A stretch of DNA of 64,000 bases from Escherichia coli. GTDB lineage: Bacteria > Pseudomonadota > Gammaproteobacteria > Enterobacterales > Enterobacteriaceae. Shown here in pieces: positions 44,027 to 53,686 of the stretch. The translations under genes were made by a program, and so were the position numbers. Where the stretch lies: assembly GCF_030013595.1 (NCBI RefSeq), contig NZ_CP122768.1; one strand, 5' to 3'. Under the pieces are notes generated by a model, which did no database searches, was not told the DNA's origin, and saw nothing but the letters and a program-made list of their open reading frames with translations. How positions within the stretch are numbered: position 1 is the first letter of the stretch; each line of letters opens with the position of its first letter.

Positions 44027-45451
44027 ATGTCTGAATTTGAATTGCTCGTGAAAGATCTTCTTTTAAAATCAGAAGAAGACGAGAAAAAGCGACAAGAAAA
44101 AGATCGAGAATTAATTTCAAAGGTTCTTGAAATCTATGATCAAAAATATGTTGCAGAACTCCTACGAAAAGTAGGAAAAAATGAATGGAGCAGAGAAACA
44201 CTTAACCGTTGGATAAATGGTAAGTGTAACCCTAAACAATTAACTTCTGCTGAGGAAACTTTACTTCGAAAGATGCTTCCAGAACCTCCCGAACATCATC
44301 CTAACTATACATTTCGTTTTATTGATTTATTCGCAGGGATTGGTGGTATTCGTAAAGGCTTCGAAAATATTGGTGGGCAGTGTGTTTTTACTAGCGAATG
44401 GAATAAAGAAGCGGTAAGAACCTACAAAGCTAATTGGTTTAATGATGAACTAAATCATAAATTTAATCTTGATATACGAGAAGTCACTTTAAGTGATAGA
44501 GATGATGTTTCCGAAATGGAAGCCTATAATCATATAGACAAAAATATTCCAGATCATGATGTCCTTCTGGCCGGTTTTCCATGTCAGCCCTTTAGTCTGG
44601 CTGGGGTAAGCAAGAAAAATTCTCTGGGGCGTGCACATGGTTTTGAATGTGAGGCACAAGGAACACTATTTTTTGATGTCGCTCGAATTATTAAATCAAA
44701 AAAACCAGCTATTTTTGTGCTTGAGAATGTGAAGAACCTTAAAAGTCATGATAAAGGTAAGACTTTTAAAGTCATCATGGAAACACTCAATGAATTAGGG
44801 TATGAAGTCGCCGATGCTGGTGTGACTGGCTCAGATGATCCTAAAATTATAGATGGAAAACATTTTTTACCCCAACATCGTGAGCGTATAGTGTTGGTAG
44901 GATTTCGTAGGGATCTAAATATTCACAAGGATTTCACGTTACGAAATATTAACCGCTTTTACCCTCAAAACAGGCCAACATTTGGTGAATTATTAGATCA
45001 TGATGTTGACGACAAATATATTTTGACTCCAAGGTTATGGGAATATCTTTACAATTATGCAAAAAAACATGCAGCAAAAGGAAATGGATTTGGTTTTGGT
45101 TTAGTGGATCCTAAAAATCCAGATAGTATCGCACGAACGCTGTCTGCTCGTTACCATAAAGATGGCTCTGAAATACTGATCGATCGTGGCTGGGATAAGG
45201 CTGTCGGTGAAATCGATTTTAGTAATCCAGCGAATCAAGAGAATCGACCAAGAAGACTGACACCTCATGAATGTGCCAGGTTAATGGGTTTTGAAAAACC
45301 AGGGGGAAGACCTTTTAGAATACCTGTATCAGATACTCAAGCTTATAGACAATTTGGGAACTCAGTTGTTGTGCCAGTATTTGAAGCTGTAGCAAGATTA
45401 CTAGAACCGTACATACAAAAGGCTGTCAGCATGCAAGTTATTAACGATTAA
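44027..45451 (+). CDS. DNA (cytosine-5)-methyltransferase, Dcm/M.EcoRII-like (predicted CCWGG specificity)
   Basis: 474 aa with motifs [15 protein letters not shown] (I), [10 protein letters not shown] (IV), ENVKNL (VI), [10 protein letters not shown] (X); collinear with E. coli Dcm as recalled; ACGGGGG RBS; AT-rich compared with flanking flagellar genes. Confidence 0.85.
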
Positions 45452-45474
45452 TAATAATTAACTTTCACTATTGT

Positions 45475-45498
45475 GAGGCCTTTTTTATTAAAGGCCTC
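45475..45498. terminator. bidirectional hairpin between the convergent methyltransferase and endonuclease genes
   Basis: gaggccttttttattaaaggcctc perfect stem-loop in the 87-bp convergent intergenic region. Confidence 0.6.
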
Positions 45499-45538
45499 TA
45501 AATATATAATCATAAGTTATTATAAGTATACTTTTATA

Positions 45539-46744
45539 TTATATAAAATCTTCATACAGCGTTATTAACTGTGTGATAAAACCCTCTAACGTTAATAATC
45601 CATCCCTGATTTCCTCCGGATATTTTTTATGAAGAGGGGAAGGTACAACCAAGGTGACACCTTCAGCTCTCATTTCGTTAAATTGAGCAACTGAGACACC
45701 CTCTTGTAAGGTAAACAAATATATTTTGTTGATTTTATTTGCTTCATTGAGTGCCTGACGCCACCGATCCTTACATGTTGTTTTTACAGCAAGCATACGG
45801 AGTTTTTCTCTTGGAAAGTGATCATCATGGTAAGCTGCCGCTGATGGAAAAAGAAAATCGGGTTTCTTTTTTCCTTCAGTAATACATTGAGTAGCAAAAT
45901 GATGCAGTCCATGCTCAATAAAAATTTGCTCAAGATGTAGCTCCAGTGATTTCCCGGCTCGAGATTTTCTTCGATTACTAACAGAGTTAGCCATAGCTAT
46001 AAAATCATCTACAGAACCAAACCCTTGACGGATGATGTCCAGTACGTGAATTTCTTCAACCATTAGAAAGAGATCATATTCAATACGGCGGCGTTCTAAA
46101 AGTTGGTCATCTGGACTGGTTACGCCTGTTGGGTAATAACCCGCAGCATATTGAATAATCTCTAAGCCAGAAGGAAAGCTATGTTTCCAGCTTTCCGGAA
46201 TAACATATTCCTTTTGAGAGATTTTTGGCCTTGATGCGAGTACACCAAGTATTTCACTGGCAGGCCCAAACATTAAAGTTCCAGGAATGATCTCCCCAAT
46301 AGCTGATTCCAGTACATCCTCTTCTTCTGGGCTAACACAAACCCATACATCAACACTTTTGCTGTCTCTCCCTGGCTCATGTTCAAACGCAAGCACAGAC
46401 AAAGCACCTGTATTTTCCGGATCCTGTAGGGGACTGCCAGCCCCCCACCGAGTGATGCGTTTTTCATTTCTTGTTTGCCCGAAATACTTATTATTGTAGT
46501 AAATAGCGCGAACCTCACTGTCTACACATTCATGAGAGGAATAAGTTGCGCGCAATAAAACCGAAGGATTTTTTTCTGACGTATGATCTATAGATGGGAA
46601 AAGTTCAGCGACGATACCAGAAGGGATATATACCCCCACTTGATGCCCTCCTGTTGCACCAGTGTCGTTTGCTGAAAGACGTTTAATATAGAGATAGTTG
46701 TTACCACCGACCTTATCAAGCAGCCAATCTTGTAATCCTGACAT
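45539..46744 (-). CDS. type II restriction endonuclease, EcoRII-like
   Basis: 401 aa; N-terminal ...YIKRLSANDTGATGGHQVGVYIPSGIV... and overall collinearity with R.EcoRII as recalled; convergent partner of a Dcm-like methylase. Confidence 0.65.
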   Translation of the reverse strand: MSGLQDWLLDKVGGNNYLYIKRLSANDTGATGGHQVGVYIPSGIVAELFPSIDHTSEKNPSVLLRATYSSHECVDSEVRAIYYNNKYFGQTRNEKRITRWGAGSPLQDPENTGALSVLAFEHEPGRDSKSVDVWVCVSPEEEDVLESAIGEIIPGTLMFGPASEILGVLASRPKISQKEYVIPESWKHSFPSGLEIIQYAAGYYPTGVTSPDDQLLERRRIEYDLFLMVEEIHVLDIIRQGFGSVDDFIAMANSVSNRRKSRAGKSLELHLEQIFIEHGLHHFATQCITEGKKKPDFLFPSAAAYHDDHFPREKLRMLAVKTTCKDRWRQALNEANKINKIYLFTLQEGVSVAQFNEMRAEGVTLVVPSPLHKKYPEEIRDGLLTLEGFITQLITLYEDFI

Positions 46745-47651: not shown

Positions 47652-47778
47652 CGACCATTCCTTCCCCCATCGCGGAAACGGATTTTCCGCCTGATTCACA
47701 ATCCTTTGTTTTTGATTATAAAAAATCACGGCACGCTTATTGCACATTCCGCAAAGTAATAAAGACTGGAAGCCACCT

Positions 47779-48609
47779 ATGAGTTTTATTGAATGTTACG
47801 AACCGGAATACGTGCGCAATTTTATGACGCAATATCCCGATTCGCCTTTGTACATCCGCAAGGTGTGGAAAAACGAGATTCGCCTGAGCCTGATGCTGAC
47901 AGAGCCAGAAAGTTGCGAAGCGGTGCTCAACGATGCCAGGGCCTTTGATTTACAGCTCACCTACCGCCCGGCGGAAGAAAATGCCGCAGAGCTTTCCGCG
48001 CGCGATGCGATAGTAAACCAGGTCATTTTGAGTACCCTCACGCTCCCCGATTTAACCCCAGAGCTTTCACTATATGCCATCGGGATTTTACTCTCCCGCG
48101 CCAGCAAAATGCCGGGCAGAGACGGAGATATTCTTGCCCGTTTGACGACGCTGCCGCAGGCGCTGGCCGATCATGCGAAAAAAGGCACGCTACAGGCACA
48201 GTTCGCCCAACTTCCGCCCGTGCCACAGCTGGCGCGTCACCTGGCCACGCTACTCGGGAGTTTTACGTTTGACTGGTCGATTTTGCCGGAAAGCCCGCGC
48301 AAAACTTCGCTGCCGTTGCAGATGCCTTTGCTGGCGCTACATGACGCCAACAGCGAAGCCCTGGTGCAACAGCAGCTTCAGGCTCAGTGGCAAACCACCT
48401 GGCAACAGCATTTTGCCACCGCGCCCTGGATGATGCGTAACTGGCTGATTTACCGCGTTTACCATGAGGTGATTGGACAGGCAGACGGAGCAGATTATTG
48501 CCCGCTGGTGTGCGATTTTTATCTTATCCGCACGTTAATCAGTTTTATGGACGCTGGATGGTTCTCCGCTGCGACAGGAGGATATTTTCGCCCTTTTTGC
48601 GGTGTTTGA
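47779..48609 (+). CDS. hypothetical protein in the Flag-2 variable region
   Basis: ORF 47740..48609 begins at a TTG; first ATG with GGAAG RBS is 47779 (MSFIECYEPEYVRNF...); no recognisable domain. Confidence 0.55.
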   Translation: MSFIECYEPEYVRNFMTQYPDSPLYIRKVWKNEIRLSLMLTEPESCEAVLNDARAFDLQLTYRPAEENAAELSARDAIVNQVILSTLTLPDLTPELSLYAIGILLSRASKMPGRDGDILARLTTLPQALADHAKKGTLQAQFAQLPPVPQLARHLATLLGSFTFDWSILPESPRKTSLPLQMPLLALHDANSEALVQQQLQAQWQTTWQQHFATAPWMMRNWLIYRVYHEVIGQADGADYCPLVCDFYLIRTLISFMDAGWFSAATGGYFRPFCGV

Positions 48610-48729
48610 ACGCTGGCGAGAGAGTGAAAATGCGCTGTTTATTCGCCAGCAAATTCAGTCGTTATGTGCGGCAGAGCCGCTGCTTTCAGCATTTTCGCTG
48701 CTGACGTGAGTCGCTCTGTGCGCGCTTTT

Positions 48730-48845
48730 CCCCTCACCCTAACCCTCTCCCCAAAGGGGCGAGGGAACCGATCGAGCACGGTGTTAAAATCGGCGCTGGT
48801 TTTCTCCCCTCTCCCTGTGGGAGAGGGTCGGGGTGAGGGCATCAG
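48730..48845. repeat. GC-rich composite palindromic intergenic repeat, copy C
   Basis: ccctcaccctaaccctctccccaaaggggcgagggaacc ... cccctctccctgtgggagagggtcggggtgaggg, same orientation as copy B. Confidence 0.7.
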
Positions 48846-48888
48846 CACGCACATTCATCACATTCACCCCTTAACTCACCCAGACACC

Positions 48889-51360
48889 ATGCCAACACAA
48901 ACCATCATCAAAACACTCGCCACCCACCGCGAAAAACCGTTTGTCAGCGTCGTCACGCCAACCTGGAACCGTGGCGCATTCCTGCCGTACCTGCTTTATA
49001 TGTACCGCTATCAGGATTACCCGGCAGACCGCCGCGAACTCATCATCCTCGACGACTCGCCGCAAAGCCATCAACACATCATCGACCGCCTGACCAATGG
49101 CACACCGGAAGCCTTTAACATCCGCTATATTCATCACCCGGAAAAACTGCCACTGGGCAAAAAACGCAACATGCTCAACGAACTGGCGAGCGGCGAATAC
49201 ATCCTCTGCATGGACGATGACGACTACTACCCGGCAGATAAAATCTCCTGGACCATCGCCATGATGCAAAAACATAGGGCGCTCATCTCCGGCTCCGACC
49301 AGATCCCCATCTGGTACAGCCACATCAACCGCATTTTCAAAAGCCGCAGCTTTGGCCCGCATAACATCCTCAACGGCACCTTTTGCTATCACCGTAACTA
49401 CCTGAAAAAGCACCGTTACGACGACGATAGCAATTTAGGCGAAGAGAAAAGTTTCACCAACAATTTCAGCGTTAACCCGCTACAACTGCCCGGCGAGCGC
49501 ACGATTCTGTGTATCTCGCACAGCCACAACACCTTTGATAAAGACTTTATTCTCGGGGCCAGCACGCCTGTAAACGCGGCGCTTACGGATATCGTCCGCG
49601 ATCCGCTGCTCCGCAATGCTTATCTGAGTCTGCATAACGCCACTCATCACCAGGCGATCAACCATCAGGCGATCGATCAGATCGTTCTGCTGAATCTGGA
49701 TAAACGCCCGGATCGCTTACAACAGATCCGTGAAGAACTGGCATTGCTGCATATTCCACCTGAGAAGATCACCCGCCTTGCCGCCAGTGAAGATCAAAAC
49801 GGTCAACGGGGTCGCCGCCAGTCGCACTTGCAGGCGCTGCGCCTGGCGCAACAGCACGGCTGGCAAAACTATCTGCTGCTGGAAGATGACGCGGTTATTC
49901 TCAAGCAGGAGAAACATATTCAGGTGCTGAACACGCTGCTGGCGAGCCTGGCGAAAATTCCCTGGCAGGTGATGATCCTTGGCGGCGAAATTTCGCAAGG
50001 AACTATGCTAAAAAGTTTGCCGGGGCTGGTGCACGCGCGGGACTGCCGCAAAGTGTGCGCTTATCTGGTGAACAGCCGCTACTACCCGCAACTGGCGCAG
50101 CAGATGAGCAACGATGAGCACTCGCTGGAAGCCTGCTGGCAGCCGCTGCTACACGCCGACAAATGGCTGGCCTGTTACCCGAGCCTTTGTTACCAGCGAC
50201 CGGGCTTTAGCGATATCGAGAAAAAAGTCACCGACAACATTAGTCACTATTTCAATAAGTTACACGTAACCACCAAGCCATCCACGTTACCCATCGCCGA
50301 CACCATCGGCTTTTTTATGGAAACCTCATTCCACTACGCGCTGTATCGCCCAATCATCACCGCTCTACAGGCGCAGGGGGAGAGCTGCACGCTGGTGATC
50401 AACGACCGCGTGTTTAAACCGTTTCTGGATGAAATGCTGGAGACGCTAAAAAGCATCGACGACCCACAGCTTAAAGGTATGCGCTTGTCTGAGATGCAGG
50501 CACACGGCCAGCGGATGAAATGCCTGGTCAGCCCCTACCACACGCCCGCGCTCAATGGCCTGGCAGCGGTGAACGTTCGCGCCATGTATGGCTTAGCCAA
50601 AGAAACGTGGAACCACGCCGACTGGAACCGTTTTTATCAGCGCATTTTGTGTTACAGCCACTACAGCCAGCAGGCGCTGGCGCATTTCGGTAGCGCAAAA
50701 GTGGTCGGCAACCCACGCTTCGACGCCTGGCATAACGGCACGTTCGACCGCACTCTGCCGGAAAATATCCAACCCGATTCCTGTAAACCTACGGTGCTCT
50801 ACGCCCCTACGTTTGGCGCACTAAGCTCCCTGCCCCACTGGGCAGAAAAATTAGGCCGCTTAAGTGGCAATGTGAATCTGATTTGCAAACTGCACCACGG
50901 CACCTGCTCGCGCCCGGAAGAAACTGCATCGCTGGCACTGGCGCGCAGGCATTTAAAACGGCGCACCGACTCCGCCCGCCACACGCTGGCGCTGCTGGCA
51001 AAGGCCGATTACGTGCTGACCGATAACAGCGGCTTTATTTTCGATGCTATTCACGTTGATAAGCGGGTGATCCTGCTCGACTTTCCGGGCATGAGTGAAT
51101 TGCTCGACGGCGAGAAAAGCTACTCCACGCCGGAGAGCGCCGATCAGCAAATCCGCGAAATATTGCCGGTGGCTCATGATATGGCAGAGTTGCGTTACTT
51201 GTTGTCAGAGGCGTTTGACTGGGGGGCGGTGCAGACACGGCTTAAGGAGATTCGTCATCACTATTGCGATGCGTTTATGGATGGCAAGGCGGGAGAACGG
51301 GCGGCGATGGTGATTGTTGAGGCGCTGGCGGACAAGGAACCGTCAGGGATATGTCGATAA
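48889..51360 (+). CDS. three-domain glycosyltransferase: N-terminal GT2-like, central GT25-like, C-terminal CDP-glycerol glycerophosphotransferase (TagF)-like
   Basis: 823 aa from ATG 48889; VVTPTWNR...CMDDDD (GT-A/DXD); IVLLNLDKRPDRLQQI...LLLEDDAVIL (GT25-like); VLYAPTFG and YVLTDNSGFIFDAIHV (TagF-family signatures). Confidence 0.7.
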   Translation: MPTQTIIKTLATHREKPFVSVVTPTWNRGAFLPYLLYMYRYQDYPADRRELIILDDSPQSHQHIIDRLTNGTPEAFNIRYIHHPEKLPLGKKRNMLNELASGEYILCMDDDDYYPADKISWTIAMMQKHRALISGSDQIPIWYSHINRIFKSRSFGPHNILNGTFCYHRNYLKKHRYDDDSNLGEEKSFTNNFSVNPLQLPGERTILCISHSHNTFDKDFILGASTPVNAALTDIVRDPLLRNAYLSLHNATHHQAINHQAIDQIVLLNLDKRPDRLQQIREELALLHIPPEKITRLAASEDQNGQRGRRQSHLQALRLAQQHGWQNYLLLEDDAVILKQEKHIQVLNTLLASLAKIPWQVMILGGEISQGTMLKSLPGLVHARDCRKVCAYLVNSRYYPQLAQQMSNDEHSLEACWQPLLHADKWLACYPSLCYQRPGFSDIEKKVTDNISHYFNKLHVTTKPSTLPIADTIGFFMETSFHYALYRPIITALQAQGESCTLVINDRVFKPFLDEMLETLKSIDDPQLKGMRLSEMQAHGQRMKCLVSPYHTPALNGLAAVNVRAMYGLAKETWNHADWNRFYQRILCYSHYSQQALAHFGSAKVVGNPRFDAWHNGTFDRTLPENIQPDSCKPTVLYAPTFGALSSLPHWAEKLGRLSGNVNLICKLHHGTCSRPEETASLALARRHLKRRTDSARHTLALLAKADYVLTDNSGFIFDAIHVDKRVILLDFPGMSELLDGEKSYSTPESADQQIREILPVAHDMAELRYLLSEAFDWGAVQTRLKEIRHHYCDAFMDGKAGERAAMVIVEALADKEPSGICR

Positions 51361-51504
51361 AATTCGATTTTTTAAACATGTCGTTGGAATACGTTTATGC
51401 CATCGACATGTTTTGGCGATATGTCGAAAAAACACGATTTTTTAAACATATTTAACATAGCCAAACGGCAGACGGCATCATCTTCTCTCACAGCGGGAAT
51501 TAAA

Positions 51505-51909
51505 TCAGTAGGTGGCTGATTTACCCCTAATCACCTCAATGATCCCCGTCGTCGACACCGACGGCGTGCGGGGGAAATACACCACCTCACAAATATACGC
51601 AAAGCTGTCAAACTTCCCTGCCCAATCATCACCCATCACCAGAATATCCGCACCGTACCCCCGCAGATACTCCGCTTTCTGCTCCAGCGATTCTTCCAGA
51701 AATACGCCATCCACGCACGCCAGCCCGGCGATGATCGCCATGCGGTCATCCTGATGGTAAACCGGCGCTCTGCCCTTTTTGGCAATATTTAAGGCGTCGG
51801 ACGATACGCCGACCAGCAGCCGTTCGCCCAGCGTGCGGGCGCGTTGTAAAAGGCGCAGATGACCGACGTGAAACACATCGAAGGTGCCAAAGGTGATGAC
51901 CGTTTTCAT
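51505..51909 (-). CDS. glycerol-3-phosphate cytidylyltransferase (TagD-like; CDP-glycerol synthesis)
   Basis: 134 aa MKTVITFGTFDVFHVGHLRLLQRA...VMGDDWAGKFD...EVVYFPRTPSVSTTGII with HxGH and C-terminal motifs matching TagD; ATG directly follows the lfiJ stop with GGAG RBS. Confidence 0.85.
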   Translation of the reverse strand: MKTVITFGTFDVFHVGHLRLLQRARTLGERLLVGVSSDALNIAKKGRAPVYHQDDRMAIIAGLACVDGVFLEESLEQKAEYLRGYGADILVMGDDWAGKFDSFAYICEVVYFPRTPSVSTTGIIEVIRGKSATY

Positions 51910-52348: not shown

Positions 52349-53686
52349 TTACTGTTCTGCCTTTTTGGCGGTGGGAAAGAGAATTTGCAGGCGGCTTTGC
52401 ACCAGTTCCAGGGAGGCGGGTTCGCGCATCTCCTGGCGCAAAAATCGCTCGATAGCCGGGAACATTTTCACCGCTTTGTCGACGCTGGCATCCGCGCCTG
52501 CCACGTAGCCGCCGAGTGGGATCAGCGGTTTGATCTCCATATAGGCGGCGTAGTTTTGCTTTAACGCGCGGGCGGATTGCTGATGTTCCAGGCTTGTGAC
52601 CTGGTTCATGCAGCGGCTGATCGACTGACCGATATCAATGGCCGGATAGTGCCCCGCTTCCGCCAGTTTGCGGGTTAATACGATATGCCCGTCCAGCACC
52701 GCGCGGGCGCAGTCAACGATGGGATCTTGCTGGTCGTCGCCTTCCGCCAGCACGGTGTAGATGGCGGTCATCGATCCCGCGCTTTCGCTGTTGCCTGCGC
52801 TCTCGACCAGTTTGGGGATCATGCCGAATGCCGATGGCGGATAGCCTTTGGTGGCGGGCGGTTCGCCGAGCGAGAGAGCAATTTCCCGCTGTGCCATCGC
52901 GTAGCGGGTCAGGGAATCCACCAGCAGTAAAACGTGATGCCCGCGGTCACGAAACCAGGCGGCGATGGAGTGGCACAGTTCGGTGGCTTTCAGGCGCATC
53001 AGCGGCGATTCATCGGCGGGCGCGACAACAACGATAGACTTTGCCAGCCCGTCCGCGCCCAACGAGTGGTCGATAAACTCTTTCACTTCGCGCCCGCGTT
53101 CGCCAATCAGCCCGACCACCACGATGTCTGCTTTGGTCTGGCGGGTGATCATCCCCAGCAGCACACTTTTCCCGACGCCGCTGCCCGCCATCAGACCGAC
53201 GCGCTGGCCTTTGCCGATGGTCAGCAGGCCGTTGATCGCTTTCACGCCCACGTCCAGCGGTTCGTCCACTGAACGGCGGGTTAAGGGATTAACCGAGGGC
53301 GGCAGCGGCGGCAGAAGGTCATTGCCGTTCAGGCGGCCTTTGCCATCCAGCGGTTCGCCGAGGCCATTCACCACGCGGCCTAACCAGCTTTCGCCAATCA
53401 GGATGTCGTGGGCTTTTTCTTCCGGGAAGACGCGTGCGCCCGCCATCAGGCCGACCGGCAGTTTAAACGGCATCAGGTAGGTGATGTCGCGATTAAAGCC
53501 TACGGCCTGCGCGTCGATAAGCGTGTGGTTGGCGCTTTCGATGCGGCACAGCTGCCCGGTCATTAGCGGGCAGCCGACGCTCTCCAGCAGGATGCCGTTT
53601 AGGCGCACCAGCCGCCCGGCGACGCGGGCCAGCGGGATCGACTCCAGCGAGCGCAGGGCGTTATCGAAAGCGGAAAAATCACTCAC
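52349..53686 (-). CDS. lfiI: FliI-like flagellum-specific export ATPase
   Basis: 445 aa with Walker A GSGVGKS and FliI/F1-ATPase-like architecture. Confidence 0.9.
   Translation of the reverse strand: MSDFSAFDNALRSLESIPLARVAGRLVRLNGILLESVGCPLMTGQLCRIESANHTLIDAQAVGFNRDITYLMPFKLPVGLMAGARVFPEEKAHDILIGESWLGRVVNGLGEPLDGKGRLNGNDLLPPLPPSVNPLTRRSVDEPLDVGVKAINGLLTIGKGQRVGLMAGSGVGKSVLLGMITRQTKADIVVVGLIGERGREVKEFIDHSLGADGLAKSIVVVAPADESPLMRLKATELCHSIAAWFRDRGHHVLLLVDSLTRYAMAQREIALSLGEPPATKGYPPSAFGMIPKLVESAGNSESAGSMTAIYTVLAEGDDQQDPIVDCARAVLDGHIVLTRKLAEAGHYPAIDIGQSISRCMNQVTSLEHQQSARALKQNYAAYMEIKPLIPLGGYVAGADASVDKAVKMFPAIERFLRQEMREPASLELVQSRLQILFPTAKKAEQ

Follow-up and report, generated by a model that had tools for sequence, protein, structure and literature searches.

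In a stretch of 64,000 nucleotides of Escherichia coli DNA (contig NZ_CP122768.1), called the window throughout this text, we analyzed the intergenic region between two convergent genes of the Flag-2 (lateral flagella) locus, which encode a family-2 glycosyltransferase (GT) and a tagD-like cytidylyltransferase. The region contains two copies of a 32-bp repeat. Very probably, these repeats are the surviving upstream part of a cassette for the Fic protein SoFic, which was once located between the GT gene and the tagD-like gene and in which the repeats would act as operators for SoFic itself. Judged by its sequence features, the window element is a truncated, orphan member of the module of S and L motifs found upstream of SoFic genes.

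The two copies, GATATGTCGATAAAATTCGATTTTTTAAACAT at 51348-51379 and GATATGTCGAAAAAACACGATTTTTTAAACAT at 51418-51449, were found exactly where an earlier note on this DNA had described a direct repeat of about 32 bp. They are identical at 29 of 32 positions (91%), and their start-to-start spacing is 70 bp. The inverted ATCGACAT, also described before, is located between them at 51402-51409. Allowing up to 3 mismatches, a search with the degenerate 32-mer found only 2 sites in the whole window, with 0.00 expected from 100 dinucleotide-preserving shuffles. The heptamer ATGTCGA was not significantly enriched across the window (13 occurrences versus 8.1 expected, with 7 of 100 shuffles reaching 13). 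The repeated ATGTCGA(T/A) motifs of the earlier note therefore hold as a local, non-random cluster and not as a window-wide enrichment; the non-random part is this cluster together with the long repeat, not the heptamer itself.

A public scan with the pattern TGTCGAWWAANNNNNNTTTNNTWAACAT, covering one genome per species (GTDB representatives), returned 108 loci. Loci are cited here by three-digit numbers where needed. In most of the 108, a SoFic-type fic gene adjoins the motif, with its ATG usually directly after ...TAAACAT. Three of them, from Pseudocitrobacter faecalis, a metagenome-assembled genome and Escherichia sp. E1V33 (L075), are Flag-2 loci with the gene order GT, three 70-bp units, a 358-aa SoFic gene and the tagD-like gene. 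The same order was found in E. coli EC1515, where the fic gene carries the PGAP label 'protein adenylyltransferase Fic'. The earlier note had named a lack of conservation in related Flag-2 loci as a point against its reading; the outcome favours that reading, since such loci share the repeats and also retain the gene.

In a pairwise alignment the window was collinear with the GT, the three units, fic and tagD of P. faecalis, apart from two gaps, one of 1011 bp and one of 74 bp. The junction of the large deletion lies at 51452-51453, where columns 201-1211 of the P. faecalis alignment, i.e. 1011 bp, are missing in the window. What is lost through this gap is unit 2 from its middle onward, all of unit 3 with the promoter, and the first approximately 315 codons of fic. 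An internal fic remnant at 51454-51489 (plus strand) translates to NIAKRQTASSSL, a piece of the C-terminal winged-helix domain of SoFic (residues 316-327). By blastn it is 94% identical to the L035 fic gene over 36 bp and 100% identical to that of L075 over 28 bp, and tblastn matches it to the same Fic residues. The second deletion of 74 bp separates it from a 3'-terminal remnant at 51494-51511 (plus strand), which reads CGG GAA TTA AAT CAG TAG and encodes RELNQ followed by the stop. Positions 51493-51560 are 98.5-100% identical to the fic end and tagD end of L032, L035 and L075, and there is a 7-nt overlap between the last codons of the tagD-like gene and the fic stop region, which is also seen in the loci with intact fic. 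Using tblastn, no intact fic was found in the window. Since fic fragments remain at 51454-51489 and 51494-51511, the event was a deletion and not an insertion, and both this direction and the homology to the SoFic cassette are shown by the data, as are the conserved motif architecture and the placement of the promoter-like hexamers described below.

The deleted gene belongs to the SoFic equivalog family (NCBIfam NF046030, 1e-179; PADLOC SoFic, 4e-121). It encodes the Pfam domains Fic_N, Fic and SoFic-like_C, the latter a C-terminal winged-helix domain, and matches the PDB entries 3EQX, 3ZCN, 9TCH and 9VJC, the last being EcSoFic. SoFic is listed among the anti-phage defence systems. The E. coli SoFic was described as a toxic AMP-transferase working via abortive infection, and a protein antitoxin, AS1, was reported for EcSofic (PMC12249575).

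The repeat family upstream of SoFic genes is built from the half-site ATGT(C/T)(G/T)A. The L motif consists of a half-site, N15 and an inverted half-site, with an A-tract and a T-tract in between, and the 19-bp S motif of a half-site, N5 and an inverted half-site; by inspection, N15 exceeds N5 by 10 bp, roughly a single helical turn. Across the 63 distinct upstream regions of fic that were compared, the copy number of L varied from 0 to 9; most loci had 0-4 copies, and two loci of the E. coli O104:H4 C227-11 type, almost identical to each other, had 8-9. Successive L motifs were 70 bp apart in 62 of 76 intervals, the Shewanella value being 81 bp. In 43 of 54 regions the last L reached up to the ATG (offset 0 or -2), and L was found abutting the SoFic start codon from Enterobacterales to Betaproteobacteria. 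The box positions of L were 88-100% conserved, the central 5 nt being freely variable.

Clear differences became visible between the gene-proximal and the distal S motifs. In intact loci a sigma-70-like promoter, GTGACA-17-TATTAT/TATGAT, was found, and only the gene-proximal unit has its S in the promoter spacer. There, S exactly fills the 17 bp, starting at the last -35-like base and ending at the first -10-like base. For 61 proximal S motifs the mean match was 4.7/6 to the -35 hexamer (GTGACA, TTTACA or TTGACA) and 4.0/6 to the -10 hexamer (TATTAT, TAAGCT or TATGAT), and 55 of the 61 had both A2 and T6. The corresponding values for 73 distal S motifs were 2.9/6, 2.3/6 and 4 of 73. An independent promoter scan of the EC1515 proximal unit yielded GTGACA-17-TATGAT with 10/12 matches. 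The proximal L spans approximately the region from the predicted transcription start, about 7 nt past TATGAT, to the start codon, which has no Shine-Dalgarno sequence. That the distal units keep the half-sites and not the promoter suggests that the binding sites, and not transcription, were under selection.

The window copies fit this architecture up to the point of deletion. Copy 1 (L1, 51348-51379, core 51351-51379, plus strand) reads ATGTCGA-N15-TAAACAT, an inverted repeat of the half-site ATGTYKA around the A-tract/T-tract, and shows 0 mismatches to the 24 specified positions of the L consensus derived from 98 unique L motifs upstream of SoFic genes. Copy 2 (L2, 51418-51449, core 51421-51449, plus strand) is the counterpart of the L motif in the second of the three units of the intact array; it shows 1 mismatch and aligns with unit 2 (TCGAAAAAAC variant) of L032, L035 and L075. 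Apart from the 1 mismatch of L2, both thus contain the motif ATGTCGAT-AAAA-N5-TTTTT-TAAACAT, and both fit the pattern of the genome scan. The 70-bp period with an S between successive L motifs is also present. This S1 (51391-51409, plus strand), ACGTTTA-TGCCA-TCGACAT, consists of two half-sites separated by N5, includes the inverted ATCGACAT and deviates from the S definition at 1 position. It is of the distal type without adjoining promoter hexamers, and its flanks, GGAATA (2/6 to TTGACA) and TGTTTT (3/6 to TATAAT, without A at position 2), resemble those of distal units elsewhere. A last unit with -35 and -10 hexamers abutting a SoFic start codon is missing in the window. In a consensus scan no sigma-70-like site was detected within 51348-51449. 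The only promoter-like match of the region, a weak TTAACA-18-CATCAT (9/12) at 51452-51481, was created at the deletion junction and is regarded as fortuitous.

Concerning the protein that binds these motifs, dimeric, and not monomeric, SoFic of Shewanella oneidensis (SO_4266, mloA) was found to bind its own upstream DNA, most strongly the 100 bp next to the ATG, while a random fragment of the same G+C content stayed unbound (bioRxiv 10.64898/2026.07.09.737422). The preprint defines no motif and maps no site; in its 100-bp fragment F1 (Table S2), an S (ACATGTCGATTGAATCGACAT) and an L (TATGTCGATAAAAGAAGGTTTTTTTAAAC) are each present once. The S. oneidensis gene belongs to the same family and the window 32-mer is the same L motif, but single or few modules are found there instead of 70-bp tandem units, and gene and promoter are deleted in the window. 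A precedent is CccR of Yersinia pseudotuberculosis, a structurally related Fic toxin with a C-terminal helix-turn-helix domain (PMC9755527). This dimeric autorepressor acts on its own promoter via 10-bp inverted repeats 26 bp apart, which overlap the -35/-10 region and whose spacing matches the wide separation of the DNA-binding helices in the dimer (PMC9755527). However, the CccR operator, AGATAATCAT-N26-ATGATAATCT, differs from ATGTYKA-N15 or N5-TMRACAT of the SoFic family, it is single and not arranged in tandem, and CccR is an effector of the type VI secretion system and not a SoFic equivalog. From the binding of SoFic to its 100-bp fragment and from the CccR precedent we infer that L and S are most likely autoregulatory operators of SoFic and that the system is autorepressed. 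The window copies are orphaned and promoter-less.

According to this model, dimeric SoFic would bind pairs of half-sites via its C-terminal winged-helix domains and thereby repress its own toxic gene, and the promoter-less upstream units would add further SoFic binding sites. In the lineage of the window, the deletions of 1011 bp and 74 bp removed the promoter unit and nearly all of fic, leaving L1-S1-L2 and two short fic fragments behind. The element is now without a gene to regulate and without a promoter, and its present roles would be incidental: L1 provides the last codons and the stop of the GT gene, and the palindromes would form a modest hairpin between the convergent genes. The suggestion of iterated protein-binding sites in the earlier note thus fits the origin of the repeats and not their present state, since the gene and the only promoter unit are gone. 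Similarly, its suggestion of a mobile-element footprint is appropriate in the sense of a deleted fic gene and not of a transposon.

Several observations weigh against this interpretation. We are aware of the fact that the motif collection was seeded with a motif-derived pattern, so that some of the conservation figures are inflated by ascertainment. The published binding was localized to a 100-bp fragment only, and the contact site was not mapped to L or S. L1 and L2 are near-perfect consensus matches (0 and 1 mismatch) despite the loss of the gene, which may reflect either a recent deletion or some residual constraint. Finally, S and L modules without fic occur in Vequintavirinae phages and at other bacterial loci, where another reader protein or a SoFic-independent role is possible.

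In order to follow the family beyond the window, a sensitive search with window positions 51335-51475 was performed across E. coli. Elsewhere in E. coli, the unit of approximately 70 bp (32-mer plus ATCGACAT segment) always precedes a 358-aa Fic gene on genomic islands. Three tandem units were found in an island with a MobH relaxase (E148, SCU-113). The largest array, with about 9 tandem 70-bp units, was observed in E. coli O104:H4 C227-11 (L004, 1010-1607), where it occupies the entire gap between a 98-aa XRE-family helix-turn-helix gene and SoFic. Tandem Repeats Finder reported for it a period of 70 and a higher-order period of 140 bp with 96% matches. Among plasmids, the array was found in only 3 records, from Cedecea and Pantoea (upstream of Fic) and on one Pseudomonas megaplasmid with one unit before the start of a fic pseudogene. 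An element for plasmid replication or partition was ruled out, as there were only these 3 records, all with Fic or a fic pseudogene. Iterons and tandem centromere repeats, such as sopC of the F plasmid with 12 x 43 bp, are similar in being direct repeats of variable copy number that each contain a small inverted repeat for a dimeric DNA-binding protein. Unlike them, the SoFic array has no consistent replication or partition gene; its constant partner is SoFic, whose start codon is abutted by the last unit.

Two further groups of loci deviate from the usual arrangement. In Halomonas/Billgrantia (L020, L037, L053, L061, L086, L112) the L matching the scan pattern lies on the opposite strand approximately 70 bp before the SoFic ATG, and the L nearest to the ATG has a diverged sequence, GTGTCGATTTTT...AAATGAACATG. 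This independence of orientation fits a DNA site rather than an RNA element. Orphan arrays without fic were found in Salmonella arizonae, Atlantibacter, Mangrovibacter, Pantoea and Enterobacter asburiae, among others. The 1-2-unit orphan arrays of L051, L067, L079 and L119 (S. arizonae, E. asburiae, Atlantibacter and others) apparently represent one conserved locus, with flanks common across the genera and ATGGGCAGAAATCGATAAAGCC after the array. Given these orphan arrays in other genomes, the toxic gene seems to have been lost repeatedly while the repeats upstream of it were kept. No common neighbour protein was found at the fic-less motif copies: 84 of 102 flanking open reading frames (ORFs) were singletons without a recurrent family, and no alternative reader protein was found among the 102.

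Within E. coli, the allele survey covered 5426 complete genomes, of which 1276 matched the 3' end of the GT gene. The repeat-bearing intergenic region was found in 107 of these 1276. In the others, homology ended about 20 bp before copy 1, at approximately window position 51328. Aligned representatives of this other allele carry a bacterial interspersed mosaic element (BIME) with two classical repetitive extragenic palindromic (REP) sequences between GT and tagD, and no homology to the window was found between 51329 and approximately 51527. The BIME occupies the same intergenic position in most E. coli Flag-2 loci and, like the window repeats, consists of palindromic extragenic repeats between convergent genes. 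However, the two share no sequence similarity: REPs are G+C-rich (GCCTGATGCG...CTTATCAGGCCTAC; TGTAGGCCGGATAAGGCG...), with a consensus palindrome of about 35 bp in inverted pairs that was not found in the window repeats, which are A+T-rich and belong to a gene-linked family. An intact Flag-2 fic is present in approximately 9 E. coli genomes, an approximate count, as 45 showed at least 80% coverage and up to 36 of these represent the 78%-identical island paralogue. In Escherichia sp. E1V33, a partial duplicate of the tagD-like 3' end (approximately residues 31-135) is located between the BIME and the SoFic array (L075, 2470-2790). The fic cassette may therefore have been acquired jointly with a tagD copy through recombination. 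E. coli SCAID WND1-2021 and similar genomes show a third junction allele (L001, 1580-2470). Here, about 130 bp after the BIME match the stretch upstream of the EC1515 array, then the sequence diverges toward a hypothetical gene, and the tagD-like gene is not adjacent.

The position between convergent genes, with REP elements at the same place in the alternative allele, raises the question of an exapted 3'-end element, in which hairpins would terminate or stabilize the convergent GT and tagD-like transcripts as the BIME does elsewhere in Flag-2. The predicted RNA fold of 51340-51480 was indeed more stable than that of shuffled sequences (-39.5 kcal/mol, z = -4.1), and an imperfect hairpin at 51374-51413, formed by the end of L1 and S1 (arms AAACATGTCGTTGGAATA and TATGCCATCGACATGTTT, 89% complementary) and part of the minimum free energy fold, is followed by TTTTGG. 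However, the stems are A/U-rich with few G-C pairs, and the fold of the minus strand was weaker (z = -2.6). The hairpin is allele-specific and absent from the consensus fold of 72 homologous units, which yielded -4.9 and -6.5 kcal/mol without compensatory changes. A consensus scan detected no terminator-like site within 51360-51505 on either strand, a G+C-rich stem with U-tract being absent, which supports the view of the earlier note that this is not a simple terminator. Moreover, such structure arises automatically from the half-site palindromes. Overall, we consider such an element unlikely, although the window hairpin may have a minor role in 3'-end stability. A scan of 51200-51650 with Rfam 15 gave a best score of 23 bits versus a gathering score of 120, for a plant microRNA model, which is a chance match.

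Modules of the S and L type without fic were also observed in several Vequintavirinae and other viral contigs, in intergenic positions among small hypothetical genes (phiTE L124/L140, Escherichia phage 4MG L125/L141, and L126-L137). In Pectobacterium phage phiTE (approximately 52506-52571 of the record) the module is bordered by an annotated terminator on one side and by the beginning of a leftward operon of small genes on the other. Phage vB_EcoM-ECP26 (L009, 2005-2074) carries a precise 70-bp insertion of one S and L unit relative to FV3, rV5 and nomine (L013, L014, L015), inside the 3' end of a small hydrophobic ORF; the unit is carried by five Vequintavirus genomes. A 13-bp duplication, TGTTGCCGGAATA, flanks the insertion; this sequence belongs to the phage itself and recurs in an array unit of E. 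coli C227-11. Approximately 0.6 chance 13-mer matches are expected by our own estimate between a 137-kb phage and such an array. By its sequence, the ECP26 insertion is compatible with one period having been copied from a host array through microhomology.

A broader function of the ATGTYKA modules, as a DNA 'address' for the winged-helix domains of SoFic beyond autorepression, by which SoFic would sense phage DNA or phages would titrate SoFic, appears improbable at present. If true, multi-unit and orphan arrays, including that of the window, could be sponges setting the threshold of abortive infection.

The ECP26 insertion with its 13-bp duplication, together with the fic-less arrays at several bacterial loci, might also suggest that the 70-bp unit is a small mobile or recombinogenic element, similar to a miniature inverted-repeat transposable element, which inserted independently of fic. 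We regard this as very unlikely. The window units adjoin fic fragments and are collinear with the intact cassette of the relatives, so that the Flag-2 site can be explained without an independent insertion. The relatives show the gene cassette and not an empty site, and neither a target-site duplication flanking 51348-51449 nor a terminal structure typical of such elements or transposons was found there. The 13-bp flanks of the phage insertion are native to the phage and part of the C227-11 unit, and no transposase is associated.

Due to the location in a flagellar locus, the repeats might be live sites for a Flag-2 or host regulator of the lateral-flagellar genes, such as a LafS/sigma-28-type promoter or a nucleation site for H-NS. 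GTCGATAA presumably resembles the sigma-28 -10 element GCCGATAA, and we take TCGATAAAAT to resemble the high-affinity H-NS motif tCGATAAATT. Inspection of GTCGATAA led to rejection of the sigma-28 (LafS/FliA) promoter, as a properly spaced -35 element is missing and both genes converge on the site. With both flanking genes converging there, such a site would have nothing to drive. Moreover, only the 107 of approximately 1276 E. coli Flag-2 genomes carry the repeats while most have the BIME, and the motif tracks SoFic in non-flagellar contexts across many genera, making this explanation highly improbable.

Least credible of all, and very improbable, is a repeated RNA neutralizing the Fic toxin as in type III toxin-antitoxin systems, with an orphan antitoxin left in the window: like ToxI of ToxIN, the array consists of tandem short direct repeats of variable copy number immediately upstream of an abortive-infection toxin gene, but it has no promoter ahead, the promoter-like site lying only inside the last unit and the distal units preceding the predicted start, no terminator in front of the toxin gene, and a negligible consensus fold without covariation, in which the conserved positions 5-6 (CG) face 24-25 (AA) and cannot pair, and to this come the opposite-strand L motifs of Halomonas/Billgrantia and the protein antitoxin AS1 reported for EcSofic (PMC12249575). 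The RNA antitoxin was consequently rejected on promoter position, missing terminator and missing covariation.

Concerning the genetic neighbourhood, the window represents the E. coli Flag-2 locus and is 99.7% identical to strain HCP5S3_I2 over the 311 bp compared. The ORF of the GT gene (48664-51360, plus strand; Pfam Glycos_transf_2, 8e-17) lies in the Flag-2 variable region; in the 99.7%-identical genome PGAP places the start at the equivalent of window position 48889. L1 holds the last 4 GT codons and the TAA stop (51358-51360), in agreement with the overlap of copy 1 and the GT stop noted earlier. The P. faecalis homologue ends 12 nt earlier (CCGTAAGG versus CCGTCAGG in the window), and the window GT extends into copy 1, where it ends, only because it has TCA at the place of the P. 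faecalis TAA stop. The convergent tagD-like gene (51505-51909, minus strand; Pfam CTP_transf_like, 4e-19) was also annotated by PGAP in near-identical genomes and in those with the intact cassette, and is followed by fliJ and fliI. Just upstream of GT, a lysine-N-methylase gene is annotated as frameshifted in HCP5S3_I2 (window region 47740-48710). Its window counterpart, an ORF at 47740-48609 (289 aa, TTG start), gave no Pfam match and may be a pseudogene.

Between flgA and flgM, inside the same Flag-2 locus, an EcoRII-type restriction-modification pair was observed at 44027-46744, consisting of a C5 cytosine methylase (44027-45451, plus strand) and an EcoRII-N/EcoRII-C endonuclease (45539-46744, minus strand). 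The Flag-2 locus of the window has hosted at least two defence cargos, this pair and the SoFic relic approximately 5 kb away, which singles out the Flag-2 variable region as a site at which defence genes become lodged.

The SoFic family, its role in defence and its binding of DNA are already known, and scars of gene decay are ordinary. The papers returned by the literature searches did not contain the half-site definition, the exact placement of S on the promoter spacer, the tandem 70-bp units in 0-9 copies, the frequent orphan arrays or the S and L modules of Vequintavirinae phages. A full-text search with the motif strings gave no relevant paper, the one match in a ToxIN paper being an unrelated primer. 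For the window, the puzzling repeat becomes a case of ordinary gene decay, in which a toxic defence gene was lost and its control DNA left behind. For the family, a precise and testable candidate for the SoFic operator is gained: ATGTYKA half-sites with N5 in the promoter spacer and N15 over the leader.

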